Part shown: one piece after another, positions 1 through 55,451 of the stretch
How positions within the stretch are numbered: position 1 is the stretch's first letter
Layout: every line of letters begins with the position of its first letter
NCBI GenBank assembly: GCA_040954595.2
Contig: CM082593.2
Span: forward strand, 2,329,830 to 2,393,829
Length of the DNA: 64,000 bases
Reading direction: 5' to 3'
Source: Balanoglossus misakiensis
Lineage: Eukaryota > Animalia > Hemichordata
Notes under the pieces: generated by a model
The model's input: the letters and a program-made list of their open reading frames with translations, nothing else
Told to the model about the DNA's origin: nothing
Databases searched by the model: none
Translations under genes and position numbers: made by a program

Positions 1-3000
1 CACCTCTGGCAAAATCAACAGGATATCCTGCTTTCAGTGCTTCTGCCAAATGATTGAAAACAGTCCCTGCTTTCAAATTCCTCATAGCTGCTACCTCCTC
101 CTATCCATAAAAAAAACAGAAGAATTTCACAATTTCTGTAATTATATAACAAATAGGATAATTTGAGAGAAATACTAGTATTCCTGAACAGTACTCACCA
201 CTGTTTTGTTCTTCTCATGAAAGAGTGTGTAGCTTTCCATCACTGTGTCCGACACTTTCTGAACGATAGAGCTCCGTTGGAATACTACACTTTCAGGTGC
301 CTGGAATTATAGAGAAAATAAACCAGTTAGAAATGTCAAATTGTGTTAACTAAGTATAGAGTCTCTGTTATAAGTTTGCTATGTAACACTAACCCTAATG
401 CTAACCATCGCCACCAGACAATGGTATTGTCCCAGGTCCCCAGGCACTAAAATTGAACAGGTCTACATGTTAAACATTTGAAAAAATAATACCTTAGGGT
501 TTTCCACGATGCTGCTGGGGACAGTGTCTCTAAATCTGTCCATCTTCACATCCCGATTCTGGCAGAGTTCTTTCAGCTTCTCAATGAATTTAGCACCAAA
601 TTTCTCAGCTCTGGCTTCAGATATGCCATCGATGCGCAGAAGTGACTTCATAGAGCTTGGTCTATACAAGATAAGGATTGCACAGAACATACGTGTCAGA
701 ACTGTATGGGTGATGGCCATCATCAGAAGTGCCTCTTGAACATTTCGTGTTTCACTCATGATAGTCAAATACTGGTATAACATCTCAACTCACCTGATTC
801 GTGACATATCTAACAGATTCTTGTTGTTGGCTATCATGTACGGGGCAGCCCCAATGCTGGATGCTAACTCATTACGCAGAAGCACCAGCTTGCTGTACAA
901 CTCACCCTGTTGTTTGAGATACAAAAAGACAGAAGACTGTGTGAGTAATTCAACAACATGTATGCTGACTGTTAGTCAGAAGTACTGGTAATCTGCTGTT
1001 GATTAAGCCAAGATTGCTGATCTATTGTAAAAAAGTTTCCATGCCTGTAGCTCCAGCTCTTTTGGGTCCACAGGTGCCTGTGTTGGTTTAATCTCTCCTC
1101 CACTGCTGGTGTTTCCAATCACCATCTGAGTCCAACCCCCAACGGGTATGCTTGGTAGTATCTTCGGAATGAATGTACATTCAACCTTCTCCTTTTCCTT
1201 CTCGCACAGCAACAGTTCCTGAGGTCAAGAATATTGTAAATGTGGTTGATTGTTCAGTGTGTGCAAACTAAAGCCCATGCAAGAAAACTCTGCAATATAC
1301 TGTGAGATTTTGGGTGGCTTAGGCAGTTTATATGGGAGGTCATTCTCATGTAAAGGACAAACAACATGTGACCCATCATCCTGTTACCTGATTGGGTGTC
1401 ATTTTGAATTCCTTGGGACTTGAAAACCACTTCTTTCCATCGGCAGTCAATTCCACTGTATATCCGAACCCGCTACGAACTGGTACCTCAACTAACATGC
1501 GCGCCATGATGGCCATACGTCCTACGAAAATACAAGGATAAACAAATTCAAACTTTATACAAATTATGCCACTAGAGCTCGGCATATTGTTTTGTGCTTT
1601 AACCCTTTCACCACCATGGTTTGGTCCAAATCCATTGTTTTCTATGGTAAAGTGGAACCTCCAAAGAGGGAACTGGGGGTGAACATCAAAATCACCAAGA
1701 ACTGATTAGATCCAGAAAACTGTTACGTACCAAATGCTTTCCACCACTTCTCACTGTGATACCTGTGGAAAACAGAATGATTTTAAAATGACAACAAAAT
1801 CATTCCCGTATTTCCTGCCTGCACTTGGCAGTGCGTGTGTGCAGTGCAGTGAACATTTCTAATTTCACACTTAGGTGCACAAGGCATACAAGAAAATCTT
1901 GGTATTTCTAAAAATGCAATACTCACTTTCCATTGCCAAATGCTTTGTGTTGGTGAAATCTGGTGTAAAGCTTCTGGTTTGTCTGCAAGCAGAAACAAGA
2001 CAACTGATGATTAGAAAAATGTACCAAAAGTTGCCTTAGCTTTTGTTTTTGCAAAAGTTTGGACTCAAATCAGGTCCTTCACTATCTCACAGTCAATTAG
2101 AGTCAATAATTAATGGCTTACTGATCCTCTCAGGAAATAAATTGGAATGGAAAGTCCAAATCTTTGACCAGTGATGGTAATTGCTTGTAGAAGGTGGTCT
2201 AACTCCTTGGAGAAATCTCTTTCATCAGAACCATCAACTTGGGTGGAAGACATCCCTGGATGTCTATTGCCTTGTGGTGCCTTGGCTCTGAAAGGGAGCA
2301 ATAAGTCATTGTTGATGACACAGTCACCACTTGAACTTTGAGACAAAAGGAAATGTTGAGATAACCTTTTATTATAGAAAAGTTCTGCATCCTAAACACC
2401 TACTTTCTTCTGCATACATCACAGCAATCTTCAGTGCCCACAAGAGGACTTGTTTCACTTTGGAAATGCGACAAGATTCCACTGAAATATTAAACAAAAA
2501 CATAAGATCATTGTAATTATTATATTGATGAAGTAACTGAGTAAGCACCTACATGTAGAGTACATGTACCATAAATGTAAAACTCTCACCTCCTTCTACA
2601 CTTGTTTGTTGTCAGATATTGTTCCATTTTTGTCATCATTCCGATTCTGTGATCACTCATCTTGTCCGTCAGAAACATTCTGTAGATTAGAAAAAATATT
2701 CAGAATCAGTCAGATGATTCAACCAACCCATCCCTCCCCTCCCTCCCTCCATCCAGCCTAGATGCAAATATCAACGAGAAAAAAATAACATTACCGGTAT
2801 CTGCAGTTGTTCTGAGACAGTCCATGGAAGAGTCAAAACTCACTTGTTCAAAGTGAAATCAGCAGATGCATAGAAAGCATGGCATTCACTTGGCAAACCA
2901 TCCCTTCCTGCACGTCCTATTTCCTGGTAGTACGACTCAATGTCCTTTGGTGCTGAAAATAAGACAAAACACAGCAATTTCACAAGCAATCACTTTGGTT

Positions 3001-6000
3001 TGCATTCCCAAACATCAGTCAATGTATAAATGTATTAATCTTACCTCCATAGTGAATAATTTTCCTGACATCGGGTTTATCTATTCCCATACCAAAGGCC
3101 ACAGTGGCAACAATGCACTGAGAATACAATGAAATAAATATACATTTATGTATGTAAATGTATAATACACACAGTCCCCTAATCACCGGTCACTGACTTT
3201 CAATACTTTACTTTCAAGAACTGACTGATGAAATCTGATTTACCTGTAACTCATCTCTAACAAACTTGTGATGTGCACTTTTCCTTTCAATTAAGGTTCG
3301 CCCTGCATGATATATATCTGCCTTCACTCCCAGGCCTGTTGAGAAATATTGAGAAAGGTTGACAGTAGCTCAGCAGCTGATTGGCCAGTGTCTATACATT
3401 GACACTGCATTATCCAATCAGAAGCCCTGTACCTCTGGTTACAGCAGAAATATGTGAATGGCTCAGAAAACCATTGTGTACTAACTTTTTATGATTTCAC
3501 CAACGTTTTCTGTAATTTTCTTAGTCGGGCAGTAAATGATGGTGGGTCCATCAAAGGCATAGTGGAAGCTGAGGAGGTAACAAAATAGGAATCATGTGAA
3601 TTTTCTTTGAGTTTAATCTATACATTGGAAAACTGCTTTGAATATGGCACAAATGTGTAGACCACCATAAACTTGGCTGGTTTAGATACAAATGGCTCAC
3701 CGTGAATTCTCATGGAGAAAAGGCATCAGATCTTCCTGAATGTTTGTCTTCATCTGGACTTCTAAGTACAAATTGGGTCTGAAAAATAATAATTCAAGGA
3801 AAAAGTCGAGCTGTTTTATCCCATAATCAGAAAAATTTCATTTTTCAAGCTGAACATGATTGAAGGAAAGCATATTTCAGTGAATATAAAACAGCAATAG
3901 TAAAAGGCTGCTTAGCAGAGATGATGTCTCAACACAGATGTTGTCACTTACCTGTCAAAGCTAGTACATGTTACAAGAGGATTTTTCAATTTCAGTGATC
4001 TGATAATGTCCTCTCTTACTTCAGGAGTTGCCGTGGCAGTCAGAGCCATGAAAGGCACCTACAAGGAAATCCATACAAAACAATAATCTCAAAGTAGTAA
4101 CCTCACTTCGTCAGTGTTCCATTCTCACAAAATGACATTTAATGACTTGGAATGTGGAATGCTATTAATACCCTGTCTGTATACACTTACCCCTGGTAGA
4201 ACGTTTCTCAATCTGCCAAGAGTTCTGTAATCACTTCTGAAATCATGACCCCATTGCGATACACAGTGCGCTTCATCTATTGCAACCAGACTGATTCCTG
4301 TAAAGTAATGGTAACAACTCTAGAAATAAAAGCAAGAAATCTTGTCCATGATGAGAAATATTGTAATGAGCTGGTGATCACAAGAAATGAGCGAGTATAA
4401 CTGGCCCATAATGCTCCGAAAGGATTGTGTGTTTTTTAAGATGTCTCAAGTCACTTACCAACTCTCTGTTGTATATCTTTCAGAAGATCTGTTGCCACGG
4501 ATGCAAACTCTGGAGTCAAGTACACCAGTCTATATTCACCACTATCAACAAAATGAAAATTGGTAAGTACTGATGTTTTCCATGTCATCTATGTAACACT
4601 ATAGTATAAGTATAACCCTATAATACAAAAAATATTTACTTACTTTATTATTCCTTGCTTGACCTTGGACATTTCAGATTGTGCCGATCCCAGATAACAA
4701 GCACTGATGTTAGATAACCTGTCGAGATATTGTCAGGGAAATTAAAATCTAAAATCTCTGTGTAAAGTGCGCCCCCAACGACAGAAATGTCACTTCACCA
4801 ATAATAATAATAATGTGTATGGGGGAGGTTTGTCTTAACCGCAAGGAAACACGGTGAGTTGTGGGATAGAACTGGAGGGGCACTCGCGGAAGACACCACT
4901 TGTGCTGTACACACTCCTACGTCAAGTGCCCCTCCAGCTATCCCACAATCCACCGTGTTTCAAAGATGGTGGTTAAGACAAACCTCCCCTATAGACAACA
5001 TGTAATGTACTTACTGTAATGCTAGCACTTGGTCCTCCATTAATGATATCAATGGTGAAATCACCAATGTGGTTCCACCAGTGTAGACTGATGGGAACTG
5101 ATAACACAGACTTTTACCGTAGCCTGTAGCCATTATCACACAGTTGTCCTGTTGGCGTTTCACTATCGACTCAATGATTCTCCACTGCATACTGAAAATA
5201 AATGGGGAAACTTTATGATAGCACCTCAGACAGTAATTGAAGGTCTCGGTGACCAATCACTGTTTTTCATCATGGAACAGTAGAAAAATTATACACGGGG
5301 GAAAAATCAAGCAACAGATGAAGAATAAATAATATGCATATTTTTAATGCTTAAATTATAATCATAGAAAGTACAGCAAACAAAGCAGTCTCTAAAGAAC
5401 TAGAAGTTTAAACTGCACTAAAAATCTATTTGCCAATAAACAGTAAAGCTTGCATGTCAGCAGGACTTGACCAGCAGGACTTGACCACTGCAGCAGGGAG
5501 GTTTCCAACAAAAGTTCAAGTTAACAAGTGCAGTTCAAAAACAGCTATAAAATCCTAGATTTTTGTCTTCTGTTCATGTTAATTGATTTCTACATTGACA
5601 CTTCTTGTCCTGAGGATAATTTCACCACCAATATTACTAACTGGAATCCATATTCATTGATACACACACTTGATCAAGCATTTGTCTCACACGGCATTTC
5701 TTAACACTGAAATTGCTCAGTTTGTCCTGCAACCCGGCCCTTGTCGCCATGGATTTCATGATGGAGTTCAGGGTTTGTATTCCCAGCGGACCGTTCCGAA
5801 ACCATATGTCCTTGTTACTGACTTTGGTAGTGTGCTGTACTCCAAGGTAGAAAGGAGCATCCAGACATTTCATCGCTTCCGGCCTCCTTGCGCTGTACAC
5901 CTTGTAAACGCCAACAGGGCATGTCTCTGGCTTCAGAGGCGTGGCGTATACTTTAAAGTTTATATAATCCGCATGTTCAGTCTCGGTAGAATTCTCCCTA

Positions 6001-9000
6001 TAGACCAGATACTCCCCTCTGTCATCGCTGGCCAGTGTCAAGTCACCCCATTTCATGTTTTTGTGCGCATCATTTCCTTTGATGCCAAACAGTTTCGTGT
6101 TGTTCAACCACACTGTGTTCAGAATGGCAGTGGGTGAGTGGGTACCCAGCTGACCAGCCTTCACTAACATCGATTCATGTTGTGGCGTTAAAACCTTTAC
6201 TCTCTTTGATAAATTCCCCTTTCCCGTCTCCTTCAGTTTTTTCCGCTTGGCCGAGAGTGCCTGTTGGCTTTTCTGGAATCTATCACCGCGAGTTATACTG
6301 AAACCGTAGTTCGAAGCACACAAGTATCGACTTATTGATTTTTGGTAACTGGAGAGGGAGTCTGGTTCAAATTCACTGCGATCCTCTTTCCGCACATTGT
6401 GGTAGAAAAAAGCCAGCAGAGAATCGAGCTCGTCCGGTGGAATGTCCACAATGTCCCGAGAATCATTGGCCATTTGCTGAATCCAATTCTTGAAGAAGGC
6501 AACGTCTCGTCTTGTTTTCATTTCTGTGTTTTTATTCTGTGGTCTCACGGGGGTGCTGTTGCAGGACGATGATTCAGAGGCACTGGCTGATGATGGTGAC
6601 TCCGTAGTGGCTGGACTTGTAGAACAGGTTGCAGTTACACTCCAACTGTCTTCATCACTGTTTATTTTTAATATTACAAGTAATGGTATAGGGGCCAAAG
6701 GAAAGACATTTCTAGAACTTGTCAAACTGACTCAAAGCTTTCACGAATGGTTGTTAGAGGACACACTGCGAGTCAGTCAATTTTTGTGCAGATATATTTG
6801 GAGGGTCAGGCCAGCTATTCCTAAAATTGAGGGCAGAAGTCACAGAACTATGAGTGGACATGTTTCATCCAGGCCTGGTCTCAGTTGATGCCTCACAGCT
6901 GATCACGGGTCAAAAGACACCGACTTCGAACTTGATCAAATATGGGCAAAGACCAAACCAGTCTTCAGATTAACATTTGAGTTCTAGAAAACAGGATGAC
7001 TTGTACTTACGGTCTAAACTTGGAATGTCCAAACGCAGTCTTCAAAACATCGGTAAATTTTGGATCCACTGGAGGTACACTTGAGTCTGCAATAAACAAA
7101 CTGGGATGAGGAAAATGCCAGACACTGCGAGATTTTGCCACACGGGAAACATAGATTTGAACAGGGTTGTGTCAGTATAACTTATACATCGGTGATTAAA
7201 ACAAACGACTGCATGCCTATAACACTGATTTGTACAGGTTATCATGTGCCTATAATACTCAGACTTATATCCACCACTATTTGTTTTGTAACTACAGTCA
7301 CACCTGTGTATAGCTGCTGGCCAGAAGGCTCAGCTGAAATGGCCGCTGTTGGATGATTGAATAACTTACTTATAAATTTAAAGCCTGCATTAGCAGATTT
7401 TGGATAGGGCAGTGAAGCAACACATATACGCATACACACAAACTGTGTCTAAACTGTTTTATTTGAAGTTAAAAATTGATTTTGCCAGATAAATAGATCA
7501 CTGTAAAATGAAGAATAAATACAGAATAGAAATCAGCAAGTCAATAAGAAAACAGTGGAGGAAATCATAGACAAATGAAATCAGTCAAGACAAGTCTATG
7601 GCAATGTTTCTGTTATCCTGGTAATAAGAGTATGCTCTCCTTGGGACAAGTTTAGATTGAATCAACTCAGGTACTGTATGTCCAGGAAATGTTCGACAGA
7701 ATGGTGGAGGGCTGTCTGTTTCCAATGGCTTGGTCTCCTGATGTCATCCCGGCTTTTTAATGATGTAGCAGACCATTGGTAGTGGCTTTGTATCAATATT
7801 TTTTGAGCTGCATGGGTTCCTTTGTGTGACTTGCCGATGACAAGGGGTTTCTTGTTTTTCTCCAGCCATGTTTAACATGCACACAACATACGAGTCAAGC
7901 ATCCTTTGAGTTTTCACCATCATAAGAGTCCTCTCCTTTGATAAGCTGAGAAATGTTACTCGCATTCCAGCAAAACTTCCCAGTCTCATCCATGCTGAGA
8001 TATCTAGGAAAATATTCTTGATAAAGCATTGGTAACCGTTGTTGCCAGTCCAAAACTGCTTCATCAGACAATTCACGACTGTCTCCGTTCATTTTCCCAA
8101 ACACGATGTTGTGGCGTTTCTGGAAGGACCCCAGCCAACCGTTGGATGCTTTGAAGGTTGTGTTGTTCACCTCGCCAGCAAACTGCAAAGCTGTCTTTTG
8201 TAGCATAGGGCCACTGACAGGAAGACCACGGTTTGTGACATCTTGGAACCACTGCCAACACAGTTCGTTGATTTCTTCATTTCCTGGTTAAAGAAGAAAT
8301 AAAAGACGCAAACGAGTAAATTGCACATCGCGATGACTGGTGCAGTAACACTCTGGAGGATCTGATAATCATATGAATGGTCCACTCCCTGTCGACACAT
8401 CCGAAATCTGAAAGGGTCACACAGGAGCCTGTGGACAGTGACCAAGCTTTCAAAACAACATCTCGTGGAAAATTTTCCAGTTGAATCTAAGTCTAAATCA
8501 CACAGATAATGAACTTACCTGTTTTCCTCAGTTTTCTTTTTCTATCACCAGGTACGTTACTTTCATACTCCTCAATGATTTCTGCTTTTCTTTTCACAAT
8601 CCGGCAGACTTGAGTCTTACCAACACCTATCATCTCTGCAATAGCTCGACCACTTTTTCCCGCCTCGTGGAGTTGAACGACCACCATCTTTTCATTTAAT
8701 GTCAGTGTCCTCCGCGTGGACGCCTTGCCAGTAGCCATAGTAACTGAATGAATAAGATGCAACTTCTGACACTAAGGGGATGTAGTCAGTACTGTTGCTT
8801 GAATCTGACTGACACAAACCTTTTTGCAGACTTTACAAGGTACCCTGTACTTACCTGCCCTAAATTTTGGTCTAATCTTCTATATGCAAGTACATGTATA
8901 CAACCATGATAACCTGTTCTTACAGCAAGGCATGCAGACGTTTATTTATCACATCAAACCCTGAACCTTACTACTATGAAAACTTCTTAATTTTGACTAA

Positions 9001-10168
9001 ATTATCTGGAAGTTCAATTGCGCTGAAGTAACCAACACCCACCTGTTTCAGTTTCTGTTTCATTCAAATCTCTCACCGACTGAGGTTTAGATGAAGAAGT
9101 CGTTGCTTTAGCACAAGCATCATCCGTTTCCTAAAAAATTGAAGAAAGAAAAAAGAACTTCATTCGAAATCAGTGACTTATACAATCTGACGGTTGTTAA
9201 TGTTTTTCACCTGACATTACAACTATTGAACAATGAGTAACTCTACCTGTAACATTTGGTCATCGAAATCTTCATCATCATCATCACATGCAACATAATA
9301 ATTCATGATTTCAGCTGCTTCTTCTTGTTCTGTCTTGGTCAGAGCCACACCTTCGGGGGTCGTGAAACTGTGTGCCAATGGAGGTTTTTGAGGAGTCGGC
9401 TATAGAAATAAACCATACAAGTCCATCTGTCATGAACATTCCAAAGGAAAATGGAAAATCCATGCACAAATACTAGATCTTAAAGTAGCGTACATTTCAA
9501 TCTGAAAACTGCCACACAAACTTAAACCATGACCCTTTCACTACCAGGTCTCTGTTTTGACCACAAATATCAAAACATTTTCTAAATGCAAGAAAAGTCT
9601 TGCACTCTATACTTACCATAATGATCTCATTATCACTACCATCTTCGCTATCTGATCGCTGCCTATACTTCACTATGCAAGGGCTGTTTGTTTCAGAGGA
9701 ATTTTCTTCCATGGGTGTTCCATGTTGTTCATTGCTTGGGGTGGATTTAGTAACAACACCTGATTCAACTGTCCAGTTTCCAGTAGTATCCGCATCATCA
9801 TCACAGTTTCCATTCCTTCCCATCGATTCATCGAGTGCCCCATCACTGTACGAGAGATCTGCAACTTCAGTCTTTACTTTTACTTTCTGAAAAGTATCCT
9901 TGGCACTTTTTCTTTCTGCACATATGCTCGCAGCTGCAGGATCACCTGTCACACTTCCAAGGCAAACTTTATTTGTGCTGAATATTTCATCCAGGTTTTT
10001 TAACTTTGCCTGTACAGACTTGATCAGTATGCTTCCATGGGTGAAGCTGTCCTCACTAAACTTAGCACACTGAGTTACTGTTTCAATTAACTTCTCTGCA
10101 TAATTAGATACAATAATCAGTTCTTCAACCAGTATTCTCTTCTGATCTGTTTGCTTGGTGTCATCCAT
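1..10168 (-). CDS. WRN: Werner-syndrome-type RecQ helicase, multi-exon, 3' end beyond the left edge, no exonuclease domain visible
   Basis: Spliced minus-strand exons with GT-AG ends: 10168-9617, 9399-9247, 9130-9043, 7086-7011 (AFGHSKFRP), 5191-~5013 ([24 protein letters not shown], motif I), ~4298-4190 ([15 protein letters not shown]), ~4058-3951 (FMALTATAT), ~3119-3045 ([16 protein letters not shown]), ~2953-2845 ([12 protein letters not shown]). RQC-region exons at ~2680-1388, HRDC exons at ~905-492, C-terminal HTH exons at ~300-1. Confidence 0.95.
1599..1683. mobile_element. Short non-autonomous element (TTAA-CCC start, piggyBac-like MITE), copy 1, right end degraded, in a WRN intron
   Basis: ttaaccctttcaccaccatggtttggtccaaatccattgttttctatggtaaagt is nearly identical to the sequence at 56604-56660. 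Confidence 0.6.
4818..4993. mobile_element. Foldback/MITE-like element with long imperfect inverted repeats in a WRN intron
   Basis: ggggaggtttgtcttaacc pairs with ggttaagacaaacctcccc. gaaacacggtgagttgtgggatagaactggaggggcact pairs with agtgcccctccagctatcccacaatccaccgtgtttc. TA is present at both flanks. Confidence 0.75.
5637..6657 (-). CDS. Crypton-derived DUF3504 (tyrosine-recombinase-like; ZMYM/QRICH1/KCTD1-type) domain ORF nested in a WRN intron; candidate alternative terminal exon
   Basis: Uninterrupted ORF with family-type motifs [81 protein letters not shown]...PLG..TL..IMK.MA..AGL. Phase-2 AG acceptor at 6659-6658. Confidence 0.85.
7458..7463 (-). terminator. Candidate polyadenylation signal (AATAAA) for the Tigger-derived terminal exon
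   Basis: tttatt on the plus strand, followed on the minus strand by a GT-rich tract (tttgtgtgtatgcgtatatgtgt). Confidence 0.5.
7744..7894 (-). pseudogene. Degenerate, frameshifted remnant of the Tigger DDE catalytic domain downstream of the stop
   Basis: A different frame reads [34 protein letters not shown], resembling the Tigger C-x-N-x-x-G-E-K...NPRCFK...LPV.Y..NKKAW segment. Confidence 0.6.
7895..8743 (-). CDS. Tigger/pogo (CENP-B-like) transposase-derived DNA-binding module, two exons (8743-8519, 8283-7895), truncated just after the first DDE Asp; nested in a WRN intron
   Basis: Exon A encodes a CENP-B N/psq-type HTH ([36 protein letters not shown]), followed by a GTAAG..CAG intron. 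Exon B encodes a CENP-B/Tc5 HTH ([36 protein letters not shown]), then MDETG and a stop at 7895. Confidence 0.85.
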
Positions 10169-11245
10169 GGCTGACTCTTGTTCACGAGACAGTTTCCTCA
10201 CATGAACAGATTTCTGATGTATAATCCTTGTCCTGTTTTTAACTGAGGATACGCTCTATCTAAAGAAAAGATGACACAAACATAAGCGTATGAGAAACAC
10301 TGGTGGTGGTGGTGGTTAGTTCCCTGAAATTTCTTTTTCAGCGATCGATCACGTCCAATAATGCCCACTATGGCTGCCCTGTGTGATTAACTAAAACCAC
10401 GTTCATTTCTATGAGTCAAAAAATAGCTAAAAGTTTAATACCTCCTAGAAATTCAACTCCGTCTTCCGTTCTCATTATTTTCCTCCGCGCCTTCAGCCAT
10501 TACGACCTCTGACCTTGGGTAGCGCCCCCAAAGAATCTTTTGTACCAACACTTTCGTTTTCATTTCTCGAGCGTATACGTGTGTTCTGATACATGTATTT
10601 TCTAAACCGGGAGTCTTGGCGATTTTATATATTCGTTGATTGCCCCCTACCTTGTTTCATAATGGGAAATTATGGAATTATGTAGATTTTTATAATTCTT
10701 GGGATTTCAGTCTTTGAACGATCCACATCTGAGCAGACATTCTGGACTTGCATTTTGTAATAAAGAAATAAAGACAACAGAAATAACATTCATCTTTAAA
10801 GACATAATTGTTTATTTCAGATTCAGCTGAAAAAATTTAACAGATGAATACTTCTGGCTTCTATCAGAACTTTGCAAGACCAATTTTTCAAGATGCATAA
10901 ATTGTCTAAGGTCCAGCCTTGTAAACAATTTCCTACATCAGGATGACACACAGTGTCAATAAATTCCATCATCTGCTCAATTCTAATGTCATGTACCAGA
11001 GAAATATAGCTCATTTGAATAAATTCATATATCAGTGATATCGAATTTGCATATATAAGCGCCACTAATATCAAAACTATTTAAGGTAATGAGATTTATG
11101 TGCCATGAACCTAGCTAGGTTGTGAGTGGTTTATAAAGACTGCAAGTCCAACAATCTTAATAGCCTGGATGAGATTCTGATTCAACAAATTTTGCCTGTG
11201 TCATCATCAGAGAAAACATCAGAAGAATGCTAAACAAGCATTTCT

Positions 11246-14147
11246 TTATTCTTTCTTCACAGGTGCACCACGCCCACCGAAAATCTTTTCAGTATAAATT
11301 CGGTCCTTACGTCGCAGTGTTCCATGGAGCCAGTCAAAAAGTTTGGTGTTGAATCCGTAGTTGCAATGGAAATACCTGCAAAAGGAAACAAGTGAGTAAT
11401 GTATTAGAAAAATAGACTACTCTCTCTTCAAAGAGATCACCAAGATCATCTTGCTGCTCACTTGGATAATTGTACTTACTGGTGGTGGTTGTCATGGAAC
11501 ATGGAAGAGGGTTGCCATGGCCATATTGCTTCCATCATGATGCCGGAATGGTCAATCATTCCATAATAATAAGTGTACAGCAAAACACCAATGAAAACAC
11601 CTTCAATACAAAGAAAAGTAAGTTTAATAAATATGTTTCAGTATATTACATGCACATACTTTTTTCAAGTATAAAACACAACGTCAATAACCTGACTGTA
11701 TTATCCCAATTAGAGACATTACAGCTTTAAAAACTTACCAGGATGAACAGGAACTACAAAGATAGGTATCACCAGGGAAGCTTGTAGGAGGAAAAATTCG
11801 ATCGGGTTCATAGCTGTAGCAGAGAAGGCAGTGGGCTGTTTGTAACGGTGATGTGTTTTGTGAATCCTCTTGTACCAGACAGGATGGTGAAAACCCCTGG
11901 AGGAAACAAACCAGTCAACCAACAAACAGACATGAGTTGGCAACTTCACTGTATTCAGTTTGGTTTTATGTTACATTTCCAAAAGTCTGTCCACATGCCC
12001 TAGCATTTTAATTTAAGGAGCATTTTACTTACATATGGAAGTAATAGGCGACAGCCTCAACAAACATGAACACAATGGGTATAGAAAGTAGAAAGTACAG
12101 CCATCCATGATCTGATATTTTGTAGTAGAGTGTGGTATAGCCTCCATTCACTATGTAACAGGCCAGAATACCTAGGAAGAATAGCCAATATGAAAATTAT
12201 ATAGTGCTTTAAAAATCGAGGATAATTCAAAATTGTGTTCTTTCTTTGACAGAAATGACACATAACCAAATAAATAATATGCCATCATTAGTTTTGTAAG
12301 AATAAAAATCTGTTTACCAGATGCAGTCGCTCCAAGAGCCATGTTAAAGCTTCCCAGCAGAATTTCATGCCGTTCGTTTTCCGGGGTGAGGAATTTTCCG
12401 GGCTGGCATTTCCATTCATGGGATCTATCTCTCCTGGCAATGTAATAATACCACTGCAGACCCCATGCCATTCCGTAGTAGGTCAGAAAAGATATGACGA
12501 GAGAGATACCAATGTAGAATTGAACATCGGTCATGAGGTGTGGCTTTGAGAGAAGTGAATCTGTTGTTGATGTGTTGTTTTCTGTCTCTTCATGGCTAGA
12601 TTTCCACGTTTTAAAGGCTAGTATCAAGACAAGAACCCAGTCACCTGTGTTGAAACAAGAAAGGGATTTCCAATCATACTGTCACAATTCTAATAATAAC
12701 TTTAATAATTCTTATCAATAACTACACTGTATAAGTCAACTGGTTTGATCGTGGAAGACCATTTTATTCCCTGGAAATTAAACTGCATATGCTTTTTGGG
12801 CCATTTATTTTTATGTTACATTAATATGAGATAGACAATTTACTTTTTTCACACATATTTGCAGTGATTTTAGATACGGTTCAGACTGTACGTATCGTTT
12901 CCCAATCGTCTATGCAGCTCATCCAGGCCCGGCCTACTGAGCTGTGCGCGTACGAGAAAGACGCGCGCGCGCACGTACCGGGGACGCGGACGCTTGGCCA
13001 GTGCGCAGTCATGTACATTTCATCGTAATATACATGTATTTAATATCTGAACCCAGGCTCCTCGCCGGAGAAAATTATCCCCGGCCGAGTGTACGGCAAG
13101 CAGCTGCCGCGGACAAAAATATTGTCGATGCTATGTCCCCAATCACATTACGTAAACCCAGGTTCAACAAACTTTTCAGTGTTTTCGCGTACGTTGTCAT
13201 TGAAGGGTCAACAAACTATGCCATTGACGCGTACTAAAATACGCTTAACTTTACGCAAATGTTTCCCGAAGATCTCCTCGGTTTTTTCTTCAGGAAAATC
13301 ATTGAACAATCTTCTGACAAATTGTGATCATTATTTTCCCCCGTGTATATTACTGCAAACGAATCAAGGATGAAAATGATCAAAGGTCTTGTGATCGAAA
13401 AACGGGCATTTTCCGTGAAATCGCACACGTACACACGCACTCAGCCACTGCGGGTATTCGACTAAAATATATGCCTGTCATTATTTTTAAGCTTGAAAAT
13501 AATCAAAAATCGAAGTGCGGAAAACGAACAAATACTTGTAATTCTGTTAATTTAAAAAAAATCAAATTAATCATCACCATTACACTTTACCAGTACAACT
13601 AACAGAACAATTCGATATCATCAATGTACATTACATGTGTACGTTCGGGGAGTATTTCATGTCTGATGACTAGATAATAGATTTTTAATTTACGTCGATA
13701 TTTGTGTGAACTTGTGAAGTGGGACATCTTGTTATCTTTGTTTGGGGGAAACACTTTTAACTATATTATTTGAACATTAAAATTATGATAATACATATCT
13801 GACTACACAGGTATTACACATCAACTATATGTCACTGGTTCTAGGTCGGAAGTGATGAAGATTATACCGGTATACTCCTAGTCGACATTGCGAATCATGC
13901 AAACCAAATCACAAAATATAAAAACGAATTTTGACAACTATTGAAGCAAGATCAATATCGATAATTTACCTCTCATAGCGGTTCCCAAAACAAACAGGAT
14001 AACCGTTGCTAGAATAACGCCGAAAACGTGCGTCCGTTTTCCTCTCGATTGCCATAGTTTCTGTAGAAAGCTTCGCAAGTATACGGCGCTACTTTTCTTT
14101 GTTCGTCTCCCTTCTTCTTTATCCATGCTTGCTGCTTTGAGAATCAT
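11246..14147 (-). CDS. Sterol desaturase / fatty acid hydroxylase superfamily enzyme (lathosterol oxidase/SC5D-like), 6 exons
   Basis: Exons at ~14147-13970, 12645-12318, 12171-12031, 11898-11739, 11603-11478, 11375-11246. His boxes GFHHPVWYKRIHKTHHRYKQP, IDHSG and FHDNHHQYFHCNYG..LFDWLHGT. Confidence 0.88.
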
Positions 14148-36655: not shown

Positions 36656-37906
36656 CTATCCCTTTATAAGTTCTTTGTTGCCATAGTAGATAAATCGGCA
36701 TATTTCTCCGAAAGCGCTCTTGAGAAGTTTAATATTTTCGGGAGTATAGTTAATTTCTTTGTCTCTGTTTTCTGGACTGAGGTAAAAGTTTCTTATGAAG
36801 GTATGTATGGTGTAATGGCCCTCCCACCATCTGTAATGACCAACGAATATCTGCCAACAGTCGTTCCAGTTTGGTTTCACGAGGGAATCCTCCTCGATGT
36901 GTATTAGCTCTGGGTACTGGATAGCCAGGGCGTTCGGGTAGAGAATGGAATCACAGTTCCAACTCCGTCTTGTGTAGAATCGATATCCCCGGTAATACCA
37001 CTTCAAGAACTTGGAATCCTTGTTGGCGATGATGATTCCGTTGTTCAGTCGGGTCTCACTTTCTCTGCCCATGACGAAGTTGTAATGACGCAGTGGTTCC
37101 AACGACTTGACGACGATAACGTCATTGTCCATGTAGACTCCACCATGCTGCAAAAGAATTTCCAGTCTCGCCATGTCAGATTTGTGCTGAATTTTGGACT
37201 TTTTAAAATCATGGCCGAAATTGCTGCGGGGCTGGTCTCTGTGTAGAACCTGAAGAGTTGGGATTGTCCTGAGGGCTTCGTCCCAATACTTGCCCACTGG
37301 TTCGCTATCCGTGTGGAACATGATTTTGTCGGCCCGCATTATTTTGTAGGCGCTCAGCAAAGACACCAGGTGGTCGAAACGGAAGGGCTGTTGGCCGAAC
37401 CACACGTAATGAGCGATATTGGGAACAACTGCAAAATTGTGTCTTTGCGCAGTGAACGTTTTCAGCTTTTCATAGGACACTTTCCTGCAAAAAGGCAAAA
37501 CGTCTTCTTTTTTGGAAATGTTGAATTCATGGCCTTGGTGCAGTAACTGTTTCACAGAGCGAATGCAGTCGAGAGATATTTTATTACCATTCGTTGCTGA
37601 AGCTTTTGGTAAAATTCTGTTTTCAAAATAAGTCTCTGAAAGATTCTTTTTCCGAGTTGTGTTCTCCAAATAAGTCATCAACAAACCGACCTTCGTTGAT
37701 GATGCGAGTTTGAAGGGTTCCGAGTATTGATCAGCGCCATATGGTATCCATGGTGATGCAGCAAACGTTTGCTTCTCTTTTTCTTCATACTGCTCGCGAC
37801 TGCCCGAAAAAGACTTGAAAGCATGGAAAATGTGAAAAAGTACGACAAGTGAACATGTCAGGAGAAGAACGGCTGTGAGGCGTCTCCAAACATACTTGCG
37901 ATGCAT
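36656..37906 (-). CDS. Intronless type II membrane glycosyltransferase, GT32/DXD sugar-binding family (A4GNT/A4GALT-like)
   Basis: 416-aa ORF with an N-terminal signal anchor, VPNIAHYVWFG, HKSDMARLEILLQHGGVYMDNDVIV (DxD) and LNNGIIIA. Confidence 0.9.
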   Translation of the reverse strand: MHRKYVWRRLTAVLLLTCSLVVLFHIFHAFKSFSGSREQYEEKEKQTFAASPWIPYGADQYSEPFKLASSTKVGLLMTYLENTTRKKNLSETYFENRILPKASATNGNKISLDCIRSVKQLLHQGHEFNISKKEDVLPFCRKVSYEKLKTFTAQRHNFAVVPNIAHYVWFGQQPFRFDHLVSLLSAYKIMRADKIMFHTDSEPVGKYWDEALRTIPTLQVLHRDQPRSNFGHDFKKSKIQHKSDMARLEILLQHGGVYMDNDVIVVKSLEPLRHYNFVMGRESETRLNNGIIIANKDSKFLKWYYRGYRFYTRRSWNCDSILYPNALAIQYPELIHIEEDSLVKPNWNDCWQIFVGHYRWWEGHYTIHTFIRNFYLSPENRDKEINYTPENIKLLKSAFGEICRFIYYGNKELIKG

Positions 37907-39828
37907 TGTTACTCCAAATACAAGTGATGTTTCGCGCAGTGTTAATCTCGAGGTCCGTTCGTGTGTAGCTATATACTTTCACAGCATCGTGGAGTTTCCT
38001 GCAAGTAAGCAAAATCTCAGAGACGTAAAAACTCATGCCATAACCAATATTTAAGGCATATCTTGTATGTTTTCCCGATCGTTATTACAAAGTTTACATT
38101 CCCATGGAAAGTTGAATGACCATGTACAAACGTGGATACTAGCAAAATCGATCGCCTAAATTGTGGTCTTCTGACTACAGTTTCGGAAAATGTGTGCATA
38201 TAACAGCACGTCGACCATTTGCCGTTGTTGGCGCTCCTCGTAATTTTCTGATTCGACTGTATTCGCCAATTTCTCGTGTGAAAAGGATCACAAATAGCCT
38301 AGGCAACCACACTTGTTTCATCGGGCAGAAATGGTCATATGTGATGGTTCATCCATTTAATCTTTACGGCAAATGTCAGATTTTATCGTTGTAGCAAAAC
38401 GCCTGGCCATGCATGATTCATGCTTAAATCTGTATGACAAATTACAGTGAAGTGGTATACATGTACTTACTATCACATAACTGGTACAAGCACGCGATGA
38501 TCTACGTACATTTAATACGTGCCGATAAATGTAGTGTATGTAATCTTGGTAAAAGTAACGAAATTTCGCGAGAAAACAGAAAAGCAGACAAATACCTACC
38601 TTATCCCGTTTTCAATATACGCCACTCTCTTGCAAAGAAGAGCCTTTTGCCATACAGCATTGGTACAGCACTGTTTGTAATAGGATTTGCACCAGCTGTG
38701 GGATTTCAATATATTTTCACTACGTTGTGACATATTGTGGCGTTGCTATGTACTCTATCCCCAACAATTATGGGATGTCTCAAGTGGGATGGTTTACTTA
38801 CTTTTCCCGCAGCCCACCAGAGAAAAAACGTCTTAGTGAACTGATTGATGAAAATGTTTTTGACCAGTTATGTATTTCTGAAGTATATAAAAACTCTTCG
38901 TAGTTGAGAGCACCATTAAAGTTCTAAGCATTATAAAAATCCGAATCGACGACAGAAACGTGCAAGATATCTTTGTATATATTAAAAGTTGTTTGTTCAA
39001 ATCAATGTAATTTCAAAAAGTGAAAACCACAAGACTAGTGAGATTTTAACGCGACTGCACCATTCTGCTGTTGTGATAGCGCCCTCTCAAGCTGAGTTTT
39101 GAAATATCTCCCATGGAAAGTTGGGATCTAGCCAACCAACGATTTTAAAGGGATGGCCACTCGAAAAAAGTGCTTATATGTCTCTTGCTACTGTTCGTAC
39201 TTGCAAGTTTCAGTTTCAAAGATGGTCACTCCAAAGGGACCGTCCGTGGGAATAGCCCTATGAATAGTCAAGAAAGTTTGGTATTTTATTACACTTTCTT
39301 TGTATCTAATTTTTCTGGAAGGTGTGTCGCCATGCTGTATTATAACCCTCAAAACCACACATTCAGCAATAATAAGTACACGATAGAAGGACCACACTGA
39401 GTTCATGTTGTTTTACTGTCTGGGCGAGACGTTCCAACTCATTAATATTCAACAAAATAATGATCTGTGACGTCACCAGATAACCACAAAACAGTCGGTT
39501 CGGAGAAACGGGCGAGTAATATTTATCTTTGGCTCGCGCAGGATCGTTCACATTCACGGAAACAGTGACTCGTGGCCATCTTCACCAAGAGGTGTTAAAA
39601 TCTACTGAAGGCCTGGCATTTTCTGTCTTCATTGTATATTTCGTGCTTGGTTTCATTGGTACGGCGGTGGCGATTGGATCCTGTACATTATTCATTTACA
39701 TGTAGAGAAAAACATGGCGGCGAAATATACATCGGTCTTGTGCGATCAACGTGTGTGCTACAATATGTAAACTCCAACGCTCCCTTATAGTTCATTTTGC
39801 AAAATTTCACTGTAACCAGTTTCTCAGT

Positions 39829-45800: not shown

Positions 45801-47631
45801 CGATATAGCTATCACTCCTTTCTTGGAAGACAAATTTGACTCATAACATGCCACTTGCTATTAAGATGTTCACAAACAAAGATAAGATGTTTTTACTCTC
45901 AGTGATTGAAATCTGTTGTGTGAGCAAATCACATGACATTTTGAACCCCCTCCCCCCAGACAGATCTTTATTAGTTGTTGTCCGCGTTTTACGAAACGAC
46001 AGAAAGTTTTGTTTGCCGATAGTCTTCTGCTGTACATTGTGCATCTGTGATTTGAGAGTGTTGTCATCTGAGTCAACACAGACGCCTGTGTTCAGTCAAC
46101 AAAGATGGGGTAGTGCTGAGTTGATGATGTGGACATTACATCTTTAATGGCAGGATTGGTTTCAAATTGTTATTGACAAAGTGCTGTGCCACTGGTCTGA
46201 TAAGATTTATGGCGTTCGGGTCAACTAAGGTTACGTATGTGTGTGTGGAATGGCTTGTGCTTTGCATGGTAATAGCTTCTGTGAGTTCAGTACAGACACA
46301 GTCACTCCACAAGATAACTTTTCCCCTTTCAACCCACTACTTTGATCAATTGCTTGGAATTGTGTGTCTGGGGAAATTCAGGTGCACTGTTAAATATGGT
46401 TCTTTTATAACAGGAAAAATCTCATTCCTTGTTGCAGAACTCCGATGTGAGTCGCCCAGGAACTGCACCCACCATAACCATGACACGAGAAACAATCAAA
46501 CGGCTGCCATGCAAGAGCAAATCAATGGGCGCCATCCAGAGAATGTCTATGGACAGTATAGAGTATATCACCACAGACAGGCACGAAAAAATCACGGAAT
46601 CCAAACCACCCTCCTGTCCGCAATCCAGGTGTCAGTCGTCAGTCTCAATGGTCTCATCCAATGCCGACATCTGTCGTATATGCCACTGCGAGGGAGATAA
46701 TGAGCTACCTTTGATTTCGCCGTGTCTCTGCACCGGAAGTCTGAAATTTGTCCACCAGCAATGCCTTCAACAGTGGATTAAAAGCTCTGATATAAAAAAC
46801 TGTGAACTGTGCAAATTTGAGTTCTTTATGCAGTCGAAGCTTAAGCCCATCGGAAAGGTACGTGTTTCGCTGAATTTCTTCTCTTCCCTCCTTTGCAAAG
46901 TTCATCCAGCTATCTTTAGATGCAAACCTTAAATGTCAACCCCATCACTGCTGCAGTAATAGCATTTTCCATGTTTCTTAAAGATCAAGTATAATTTGAT
47001 GGCAGTATTCAATTATGGTAAAACGTTTAATTCATGGAAAAATGCAGATCGTGTTACATACACGTGAAGGTAAAACCAATTTAGTTAGAAATTTTAAGTG
47101 TATTGCCTATAAAACACTACATAGATTGATAATTCATCCTTCCTTTAAAAATAGAATACCAAGAAGTTGAGTATTAGGCATCACAATTCTCTGATACATA
47201 TTTTTTTTCTGTATCATGTATTTCAGTGGGAGAAGCTTGAGATGTCGTCAAGTGAAAGGAGAAAGATTATGTGTTCGGTATCATTTCACATCATAGCAAT
47301 CACATGCGTGGTGTGGTCGTTGTACGTTCTCATCGACCGCACCACAGAGGAAATACGTCAGGGGGCCTTGGAGTGGCCGTTCTGGACGAAACTTGTGGTG
47401 GTGGCGATTGGCTTCACGGGCGGCCTGGTGTTCATGTACGTGCAGTGCAAGGTCTACGTTCAGCTGTGGCGGCGACTGAAGGCGTATAATCGCGTCATTT
47501 ACGTGCAGACCTGCCCGGAGGAAAAACGAGCCGAACTGATGGTACAGAAGAAGTTGGGGGAGAATCACGTGAAGGAGAAAGTGCAGGCCAGCCAGAGTAA
47601 CAACGACCCCCAGGCAGAAGTGGCTTTGTGA
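39829..47631 (+). CDS. MARCHF8: Membrane-associated RING-CH E3 ubiquitin ligase MARCH8/MARCH1-like; exons 39829-39903, 46438-46857, 47227-47631
   Basis: N-terminus [10 protein letters not shown] (vertebrate MARCH8 has MPLHQISAIP, recalled), RINGv [40 protein letters not shown], two TM helices and [39 protein letters not shown]. Confidence 0.93.
41802..41890. promoter_or_regulatory. Candidate intronic enhancer: tandem NF-kB-like sites plus AP-1 and E-box motifs
   Basis: GGGACTTTCG (41864-41873) and a perfect GGGACTTTCC (41881-41890), TGACTCA at 41802, CACGTG at ~41818. Confidence 0.45.
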
Positions 47632-50948: not shown

Positions 50949-52398
50949 TCAGTGTCTTCTCTTTTTACTCATTTCTTTGATATAATCAAACAATTTTGAG
51001 GAATCAGTCTCTCCAACTCTTATCATCTGCTGCAAGGCAAGAGCTTGTTCAAATGAACTCCAAAAGTCTTCTGGCCACATATAGAAACTGTAAAGAAAGA
51101 CAAAAACATGGTTATCAACAAAGACTATTTTTTCTTTATGGCTATATGGATAGATGTTCTTCAGATCAACATTGTGATACTCACTCTTCTGATATGGATA
51201 CATCACTTCTGTCACCATAGGATACATCTGGTGCAGGACATCCCATGTGGTTGTAAGCCCCAAAATGAGGGGTTGGAGGTGGTGATGCAGGGTCCTTGGC
51301 GTGTTTAGCTTCTGCTTCGAGTCTCTCGTTCACTTTATCGCATACGTGGCACTCAAAACTAGAGATGAAATCATCTTTCCCGACCTCATCATCGTGCCAC
51401 GACCGTTTTGTCATGTGATCAATCAAGAACTGGTTTGTGATGCCGTCTTCTTTAAATTTCAAGTACTCTGAGTATTCTTTGTCGTCTTGATCCAGGGATG
51501 TGATGAACTCGGCCAGTTTCTGTGGAGATTCAAAGTCTTCCATCATGATGATGGACTTGTCGTTTGGCATCCAGTCTCTGGCTTTGGGGGAACCCCAATA
51601 AATCGGCACTGAGCCGACATGCAGAGGGCGGAACAACTTCTCTGTCATGTAGTCGTCGCAGATGGCGTTTTCAAACGCCAAGTGAAATTTATATCGCGAG
51701 ATCAAGTTTAAGAAATCTTGCCGATGCATTGTCAGCGTGTCCTTGAGTTCATCTGGAAGCTCTTTATTGTTAAGACATTCACCATATGAATCGATTTTGA
51801 TGTATTTCATGAGTTCTCTGACGTACCGGTCCCTGTCTGACGCCACGTTGCAATGAGACTGGACATACAACACTGGGGCCAGGTTTTCTGTGTCTTTCAG
51901 TCGGCTTTTGGTCTCCAGGGGTACTGGTTTCCTGACTGTTAAATGGTCCAGTGATCTGATCGGCAGCGAGGTTAGCGGGAAGTCGGACTCCCGGCGGAAC
52001 GTGGCCGTGTGATTGAACTGCTGGATCATTGGCTTGTGTGACAAGATGTAGTTATTCATTGGGGATTCCTCGTGGAGCAAGGCCCATTCGTGATGTGCCA
52101 GTCTCGGCAGAGGAGCTTCATCCCCACGGAAATCAGTCCCGTAGAAGATTATACCCCTTGTCATCGGATTTTTCAGCTTCTTCTTGTCCTTTGTCGCTAC
52201 ACACGAGCCTCTGTTACAATTTATGACATCACTATCCCCGTTAAAGTGAGGAAATAGACTGTCAGTCCACCATAACACGATTGGCATTGAGTTGTTTCTT
52301 GATGAAAACACAGGATTAACTTTGGGTAGGAACGCGTCGCCCGTGTCCGCTCCTATTTGGCTTGCAAACAACAATATCACGCACAGAGTGTTCATCAT
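50949..52398 (-). CDS. FUT11: GT10 fucosyltransferase FUT11 (POFUT4)-like; exons 52398-51185 and 51087-50949
   Basis: HEWALLHEESPMNN, FNHTATFRRESDFPL, YVQSHCNVASDRDRYVRELMKYIKIDSYGECL, YKFHLAFENAICDDYMTEKL. A short GTGAG..TACAG intron restores the frame to FYMWPEDFW. Signal-type start MMNTLCVILLF. Confidence 0.92.
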
Positions 52399-52583
52399 TT
52401 TTACACTTTCGTTTAGCTCTATACTTACTTGACTTGGTTTCTGCACTTCGAGATGTCGGAATGATGAAATAACCCAAATAACAACAAAGTTTCGGGTTGT
52501 TCCACCAAACCCGGAAGTAACAGACGACTTTTCCAAACTTTCCGTATTACCCGACATCCTTTGCGAGTGACACCGAGCTCAAG
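52399..52583. promoter_or_regulatory. Compact bidirectional promoter between FUT11 and MRPS24
   Basis: Head-to-head ATGs about 185 bp apart. ETS/GABP-like CCGGAAGT at ~52511 and YY1-like AAGATGGC over the MRPS24 start. Confidence 0.7.
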
Positions 52584-54395: not shown

Positions 54396-54776
54396 TCAGC
54401 ATATTGAACAGGCTGCTTTGTTTTCCCCGCCTTTCTTCCTCGCTCTTTCTTCACTTTGGATTATTGCTTCACACTTCAAATCGATGAGATGATAAAAATC
54501 GGCCTCAGACATCAGCAGATCGTATTCATTGAAATCCTCGGGCAAATGCAGTTGTGAGTAGCGGAGGAAGTTGAGGATATGACGGAATAGTTTTCCGTCT
54601 CCATCGATCAGGTATGCTCCAGTGTTGTCTGTTTTAAGTGGCATACGTCCGCTAAACATGAGGCCCAACCTGGAGTCGGGATATCGTCCCAGCGTCGTGA
54701 GTGAGGTGGTGTAAAGCTTGCCTCCAACGTTCAGGTTCACCATATCACCAGCTGCAGTTTTTATCACGTGTGCCAT
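54396..54776 (-). CDS. Single-exon KCTD-family BTB/POZ (T1) domain protein, 126 aa
   Basis: VNLNVGGKLYTTSLTTLGRYPDSRLGLMFSG, YLIDGDGKLFRHILNFLR, EADFY. Confidence 0.9.
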   Translation of the reverse strand: MAHVIKTAAGDMVNLNVGGKLYTTSLTTLGRYPDSRLGLMFSGRMPLKTDNTGAYLIDGDGKLFRHILNFLRYSQLHLPEDFNEYDLLMSEADFYHLIDLKCEAIIQSEERARKKGGENKAACSIC

Positions 54777-55451
54777 GGTCAGTAATATTTGTTCCGCCGT
54801 TTTTTTGCCTATAAGTAAGTATGCGCGTCACAATGGCAAACACCTTTTTAGACTAGCAGTATTCTTAGAAAAAATGTTGCCTGTCGGGATGGATTTTACA
54901 CTTTCGTTTTCGTTTTGAAGTCCACTTGTAGCATGTGTAGCATGTACTCGACAGTTTAACATATGTCGTGTCAAATTGTTATATTTTGCATGTATCACGG
55001 TCATGGTGTTCCAGATGGTTACTTATCAAGAATTATGATATTACGGGGCGCATATACCCACCCCCCCCCGGAAAGCGCCCTCGCGCAGTGAAGTTCTGTC
55101 AGTGGAGAAGTGAAAAGAAGAACAAACAACTGGGTCATCGAGGTCACTATGCTGTATGTACCAGCAATCTTCCTCTTTTCTGTTTAATTTTGCCCGTATT
55201 AACTGCTTGACGGGATTATAATCAGAGTACACTAGGATTGTAATAAACCCGAGGTAAGACCACTTATTTTATTTTTGTTCTGGATAAATATCGCGTGAAA
55301 CATGTTTGCACAAGGGATCGGACGTGTTTTGTTACCACGGTACTCGTTGGCATGTAAATAATGTTGGCCTCTCCTACCCATAGGCTATGGTGGGATGGGC
55401 GACCGGAAGTGAACCCGGCAGGATTCGTTTTTCCAGTGACCAGTGATAAAT

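Follow-up and report, generated by a model that had tools for sequence, protein, structure and literature searches.

The WRN locus of the hemichordate Balanoglossus misakiensis lies at the left end of the 64,000-nucleotide (nt) stretch analyzed here, which we call the window (positions 2,329,830 to 2,393,829 of contig CM082593.2, assembly GCA_040954595.2), and it holds two transposase-derived modules in consecutive introns: a Tigger module in intron 4 and a Crypton-derived module with a DUF3504 domain in intron 5. The gene and both modules lie on the minus strand, as does every feature of the locus described below unless noted otherwise, and positions are counted from the first letter of the window. 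A first-pass annotation had described these as two unrelated modules on the WRN strand; its coordinates and phases all checked out, and Pfam recognized both, with matches to CENP-B_N (E=1e-11) and HTH_Tnp_Tc5 (E=4e-19) in the first and second Tigger exons (T1 and T2) and to DUF3504 (E=3e-23) and QRICH1 (E=4e-5) in the Crypton module.

The host frame, in which exons were placed by hand from GT-AG sites and the reading frame, runs without a stop for 1022 amino acids (aa) through 25 coding exons, from 10168 to the left edge of the window. Its first helicase exon, E6, scored 73-76 bits against human WRN and at most 47 bits against other RecQ proteins, Pfam found a DEAD match (E=5e-10), and RQC, HRDC and C-terminal HTH_40 domains follow the helicase core; this part of the gene (1-5191) comprises 21 exons and continues past the window edge. 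Upstream of it lie E2 (9617-10168), in which a predicted three-helix N-terminal segment is followed by acidic low-complexity sequence; E3 (9247-9399), also acidic, with phase 0/0, GT-AG boundaries and an open frame; E4 (9043-9130), with a phase-1 donor of 10.0 bits; and E5 (7011-7086), with a phase-2 donor of 7.1 bits. Vertebrate WRN has an N-terminal 3'-5' exonuclease. A Pfam scan of E2 and E3 detected no such domain and returned no match at all, and the N-terminal 264 residues are acidic (20% aspartate plus glutamate). E2 matched none of 1113 candidates among proteins of 323-2000 aa and gave no usable match in the ESM Atlas, and its low-confidence structure model (predicted local distance difference test [pLDDT] score 62) gave generic three-helix matches only, with no fold match at E<=0.001. 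A single match among 1.84 billion representatives, to a tandem-repeat protein, was judged spurious. With neither a Pfam match nor a detectable homologue for its first 264 residues, the host gene is, as read from its sequence, an exonuclease-less WRN orthologue. We infer its first exon and start codon: a putative noncoding first exon has its donor at 10441. A 15-codon upstream open reading frame (ORF) lies in that exon at 10500-10453 (minus strand), and the true WRN start may be there via other splice sites. The intron at 1044-907 (minus strand), after the exon ending at 1045, has an apparent GC donor (GC-AG) that is required for the frame.

Twenty-three of the 25 WRN introns are 92-296 nt long, and the two that bear the modules measure 1956 and 1819 nt. 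These two are adjacent to each other and lie directly upstream of the helicase core exons. Within the coding region, 5 of 24 introns are in phase 1.

The Tigger module consists of T1 (8519-8743), which encodes the CENP-B_N helix-turn-helix (HTH) and has its own ATG at 8738, 5 nt past the acceptor; an intron of 235 nt (8284-8518, phase 1) with a donor of 12.5 bits and an acceptor of 11.6 bits; and T2 (7895-8283), in which the HTH_Tnp_Tc5 domain is followed by a degenerating linker, the start of the DDE domain and a stop codon at 7897-7895. Beyond it lies a shattered DDE remnant (7501-7894), recognizable as weak pieces in three frames within ~200 nt, none of them beyond profile position 240 of 522; it may be spliced out as a 3' untranslated region (UTR) intron (donor 7891, 4.6 bits; acceptor 7500, 12.0 bits). 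A candidate poly(A) signal, AATAAA, follows at 7458-7463 and a lone right-end Tigger terminal inverted repeat (TIR) with TA at 7293-7322 on the plus strand; the latter is the sole exact match in the window to a TIR pattern and is similar to the TIRs of related elements L002, L003 and L016. A search for a left TIR was not significant, with 80 of 500 shuffles reaching the score. The stop at 7897, the frameshifted DDE remnant and the single TIR all distinguish the module from an active Tigger/pogo element. The strong acceptor at 7500, with a 95-nt AG-free zone, stands just ahead of the AATAAA (7500-7440, minus strand), and its direct use by E4 would yield a short message encoding only the WRN N terminus (WRN-N).

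The first methionine of the homologues aligns to the ATG at 8738, so the ancestral ATG has been kept in T1. Intact Tigger proteins align contiguously over the 235-nt gap (8518-8284), and the intron is absent from all 14 of the related metagenome loci that matched both HTHs (80 fetched). Together with the near-maximal splice scores, these alignments indicate that the Tigger ORF is one that gained an intron and has maintained it in good order. We compared the module with 9 intact proteins drawn from 40 matches and found that the HTHs kept 29 of 32 family-invariant columns, the three changes being I>V, I>V and L>M, whereas the linker and DDE start kept 9 of 16 (Fisher p=0.01). The identity of the HTHs to the references equaled that among the references themselves (0.50 versus 0.50 and 0.60 versus 0.61); for the linker and DDE start the values were 0.33-0.36 versus 0.51-0.65. 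The open frame of the HTHs is unremarkable alone, as it survived in 23-31% of neutral runs at 8-10% divergence. Against longer proteins, T2 gave 40 matches at 37-54% identity, none of them orthologue-like by identity, and one of the top Tigger matches is from a hemichordate. Two limpet proteins (P0049 and P0050), similar in two Patella species, have both Tigger HTHs but no DDE domain, with unrelated sequence on the N- and C-terminal sides, and are likely another domestication.

The Crypton-derived ORF (5637-6657) is of the DUF3504/QRICH1 type, with a linker rich in serine and threonine and a tyrosine recombinase (YR) fold, and a candidate poly(A) signal, ATTAAA, lies at 5343-5348. A perfect 14-nt tandem pair is present in its 3' flank at 5458-5485. 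In a search that covered proteins of 200-637 aa, its closest relatives were intact hemichordate Crypton recombinases (57% and 53%), and the best structural matches of its model (mean pLDDT 58) were QRICH1 (9hjt) and Cre. The catalytic tetrad of Crypton tyrosine recombinases is R-H-R-Y (PMC3212892), and this module lacks it: catalytic R, K, H and R are replaced near 6080, 5984, 5711 and 5702 (R>K, H>F and R>K), and the protein ends before both the C-terminal H and the Y. Judged against references that comprised 5 of 7 matches, none of 4 catalytic invariant columns was kept versus 57 of 66 others (p=0.0008, indicative only because the catalytic lysine was assigned from YR motifs after the alignment had been seen). 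An intact tetrad, the mark of an active Crypton, is thus missing, and a YR fold without the tetrad is the pattern described for domesticated DUF3504 genes (PMC3212892). The frame is open over 289 codons, which substitution-only neutral drift permits in 3-7% of runs at 8-10% divergence. The first-pass annotation had noted that this ORF has no ATG before 6521 and probably needs upstream exons. Upstream of Met 6521 lie five residues identical to the closest Crypton, and the first predicted helix starts four residues ahead of this Met; translation therefore probably starts upstream, as proposed. The absence of an earlier ATG holds for the unspliced ORF, but an ATG at 6861 opens the DUF3504 frame through the donor at 6766 and a 109-nt intron, giving a protein of 371 aa.

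The claim that both elements are domesticated thus drew support from differential conservation in both modules and from the Tigger intron gain. On these alignments, each module has lost only its catalytic parts and has preserved those that bind DNA. No second copy of either module was found within the 64-kb window, and from the sequence we regard the domestication of both as very probable.

We scored the splice sites with a model trained on the 25 WRN introns, for which leave-one-out scores ranged from 1.3 to 12.2 bits for donors and from 3.6 to 12.5 bits for acceptors, and with a background of 204 GTs and 137 AGs. The first-pass annotation had proposed joining E4 (9043, phase 1) to the Tigger acceptor at 8743 (phase 1). 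This join is in frame: the spliced WRN-N-Tigger frame is free of stops for 468 aa, and no other acceptor in that region outscores 8743 (7.1 bits, matched by 3.6% of the background AGs). The second proposed join, from E5 (7011) to 6657, both phase 2, is likewise in frame, and the WRN-N-DUF3504 frame is free of stops for 629 aa, but the acceptor proved weak. It scored 0.0 bits, below all 25 WRN acceptors and no better than 43% of background AGs, and its tract has 9 purines in 14 positions versus at most 7 in WRN acceptors. Moreover, the open 5' stretch of the ORF contains several AGs of differing phases, and the phase match at 6657 therefore carries little weight. A better in-frame route would use a 54-nt bridging exon (6820-6767; acceptor 6.2 bits, donor 5.7 bits), whose ends are the best acceptor (6820) and the best donor (6766) near the module and which connects the E5 frame to the DUF3504 ORF without a stop for 647 aa. 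This exon is part of a small exon (6767-6861) that can be read, stop free either way, as the bridge from E5 or as an initial coding exon that begins with the ATG at 6861. Both routes still rely on 6657 or on another weak AG, such as that at 6555. Thus, ahead of each module the best acceptor (8743 and 6820) matches the frame of the WRN donor before it, and the anatomy of an exon trap (an intronic transposase ORF on the host strand, an acceptor in frame and a poly(A) signal beyond the ORF) is clear for Tigger and present for DUF3504 via the weak 6657 acceptor.

The Tigger cassette, poly(A) signal included, lies between the arms (8953-8905 and 7247-7193) of an inverted repeat of ~50 nt. In an alignment test, 1 of 1000 dinucleotide shuffles reached the score of this repeat, and in a duplex test none of 200 did; the regions were chosen after a prior repeat scan. 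The duplex of the 5' arm (8905-8953) with the 3' arm (7193-7247) is more stable in the sense than in the antisense orientation (-52.9 versus -43.2 kcal/mol). Three other flank pairs tested for inverted repeats were at chance, and further copies of the repeat arm in the window were limited to matches with 3 mismatches. It may form a splicing loop by which full-length WRN is protected, or it may represent the arms of an older miniature inverted-repeat transposable element (MITE) hit by the Tigger insertion. Around the end of the 3' arm, 13 nt are present twice (7214-7259).

Either module is compatible with a tail on WRN and with a small gene in its own right. We favor fusion because of how the two are arranged: they share the strand of WRN, occupy adjacent introns just where the motor domain is about to begin, have best acceptors that are in frame and leave little intron space for separate promoters (about 190 nt for Tigger and 150 nt for DUF3504); the inverted repeat around the Tigger cassette adds to this. 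In this reading, WRN would use two catalytically dead transposon genes as alternative last exons, a double exon trap resembling CSB-PGBD3; we consider the case for and against this full reading to be evenly balanced. That at least one fusion is made seems rather probable, and that both are made falls slightly short of an even prospect. The idea of one promoter with three isoforms fits the anatomy: the promoter would give the helicase, a WRN-N/Tigger double-HTH protein and a WRN-N/Crypton-DUF3504 protein. E4 would be spliced to the transposon-borne acceptor at 8743 in a transcript ending near 7440, and E5 would reach the DUF3504 exon by way of the 54-nt exon 6820-6767, while pairing of the arms 8953-8905 and 7247-7193 would loop the Tigger cassette out so that full-length helicase mRNA could still be made. 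Solitary forms from the modules' own ATGs would probably be made alongside the fusions, as at CSB-PGBD3, and the fusions would act as DNA-binding regulators with an acidic WRN N terminus, being neither nucleases nor helicases.

Several observations weigh against fusion. The acceptor at 8743 has a local partner 111 nt upstream: the donor at 8854 is perfect, its 12.5 bits exceeding the score of every one of the 204 background GTs, and the two would form a putative Tigger 5'-UTR intron (8744-8854); among the upstream AGs checked by hand, none gave an exon ending at 8855 that was in frame between E4 and T1, except one that leaves a 20-nt intron. (Use of 8854 as a recursive splice site was rejected, its acceptor score being 0.6.) Among the related Tigger elements, 9 of 12 examined had a locatable ATG, and in 3 of these a strong acceptor of matching phase lies 8 nt ahead of the ATG, accompanied in L024 by a strong upstream donor. 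Related Tiggers that carry their own 5'-UTR splice sites can explain the 8743 acceptor without fusion; the Tigger splice sites are probably element borne, which permits capture without proving it. Each module also has its own ATG with a purine at -3 (8738 and 6861), the 6657 acceptor is weak in any splicing model, and the Crypton flanks have no inverted repeat (607 of 1000 shuffles reached the score). No protein joining the WRN N terminus to either module appeared in length-limited searches, in which E2 itself had no detectable homologue; no WRN-like N terminus was present among 6 full sequences and 10 N termini of Tigger matches, and a search of viral contigs gave no match. Independently of this locus, L003, L004 and L024 form a mobile-looking Tigger family in which the strong acceptor 8 nt before the ATG is a ready-made phase-1 exon trap.

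Much of this evidence would be explained by two independent nested domesticated genes with compact intronic promoters, to which the WRN exons are never, or only incidentally, spliced. Their products would come from a Tigger-HTH gene (noncoding exon ending at 8855, ATG 8738, about 203 aa) and from a KIAA1958-like gene (ATG 6861, 371 aa), in agreement with the perfect 8854 donor and its typical 111-nt intron, the retained ancestral ATG, the similar splice sites of related Tiggers and the in-frame ATG 6861 with its 109-nt intron. However, two promoters would be needed in 150-190 nt inside a gene body, and the shared strand, adjacent introns, prehelicase position and two in-frame best acceptors would be left as coincidence; moreover, the 6861 exon has no significant similarity to Crypton N termini (213 of 2000 shuffles). 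We judge this arrangement less likely than fusion, yet a serious rival to it. A further alternative is that the modules borrow the promoter of WRN and not its protein, with an upstream noncoding WRN exon spliced to 8743 and the transposon proteins made from their own ATGs. The retained ATG 8738 in its strong context, the putative noncoding first exon (donor 10441) and the strong acceptor at 7500 are compatible with it, but three exons would have to be skipped and the 8854 donor and the in-frame match to E4 and E5 would go unexplained; we find it improbable, and no less so its variant in which a truncated WRN-N message ends through the 7500 acceptor and the poly(A) signal at 7463. That both modules are neutrally decaying relics, open by chance, is highly improbable, for although a TIR persists at 7293, no orthologue was found and the open Tigger HTH frame alone is unremarkable, this view is at odds with the loss limited to catalytic parts in both modules, the gained intron with near-maximal splice sites and the lack of a second copy in the window.

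If fusion is the correct reading, the locus may work as a three-way switch whose outputs are a helicase and a pair of sequence-targeted DNA-binding proteins with the WRN N terminus in common, the RNA stem setting the choice and the TIR at 7293 serving as a site for autoregulation by the Tigger fusion; this extension we put forward as doubtful. Fusion as such would mean that the intron between the regulatory N terminus and the motor of a repair enzyme can repeatedly recruit DNA-binding modules, and it would provide a compact locus, with its flanking RNA stem, for studying how a host keeps its full-length mRNA. Should the modules be independent genes, the locus would still contribute two domesticated transposon genes specific to its lineage, an ordinary finding. 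Intronic transposase capture as such is well known. The first-pass annotation had stated that no double exon trap in WRN was known to it, and the literature that we searched, mostly outside subscription papers, likewise contained no WRN-transposase fusion; if confirmed, the capture of elements from two superfamilies by one RecQ gene would be new.

Elsewhere in the window, the upstream same-strand neighbor at 11375-12681 (minus strand), which ends about 700 nt before the WRN promoter region, presumably belongs to the sterol-desaturase/fatty-acid-hydroxylase family, as judged from a motif. Read by eye, the ORFs at 36656-37978, 46411-47631, 51181-52578 and 54396-54827 are what we take to be a glycosyltransferase, a MARCH-type RING-CH ligase, a fucosyltransferase and a KCTD/BTB protein, respectively.

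Like the Tigger-derived TIGD, CENP-B and JRK proteins, the Tigger module has the CENP-B_N and HTH_Tnp_Tc5 pair, but in those proteins the DDE domain is kept, whereas here it is destroyed and an intron has been gained between the two HTHs. Crypton-derived DUF3504 genes include KIAA1958, with its a/b alternative exons, KCTD1b, ZMYM2-4, QRICH1 and WOC, and an intronic YR is present in ATF7IP (PMC3212892). The Crypton module shares with them a YR fold without the R-H-R-Y tetrad and an intronless terminal exon, and its best structural match is QRICH1 in the Zincore complex (9hjt). Unlike theirs, its nearest relatives in sequence are intact Cryptons of hemichordates, an indication that it was captured independently, and its host is WRN. 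Among tetrapod host-transposase fusions, the splice sites were element borne in 8 of 9 (bioRxiv 10.1101/2020.05.07.082677); in contrast to KRABINER and SETMAR, described there, the host here is an invertebrate, two captures lie in one gene and the N-terminal partner, WRN-N, has no recognizable domain.

The closest parallel is CSB-PGBD3, a piggyBac exon trap in intron 5 of ERCC6, in which the acceptor lies 7 nt before the element's own Met, a cryptic promoter is present and both fusion and solitary forms are made (PMC2268245). As there, a DNA-repair ATPase gene holds an intronic transposase just before its motor domain; an in-frame acceptor lies a few nucleotides ahead of the Met of the element itself, a poly(A) signal follows and a solitary form is possible. 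The WRN locus differs from CSB-PGBD3 in having two elements, a Tigger/pogo and a Crypton, each of them truncated or without catalytic activity, in its host, which is a RecQ helicase, and in that its fusion is a predicted one. If the fusions are made, the locus would be a counterpart of CSB-PGBD3 that arose independently in an invertebrate, in a second gene of genome maintenance and through captures from two superfamilies in adjacent introns.

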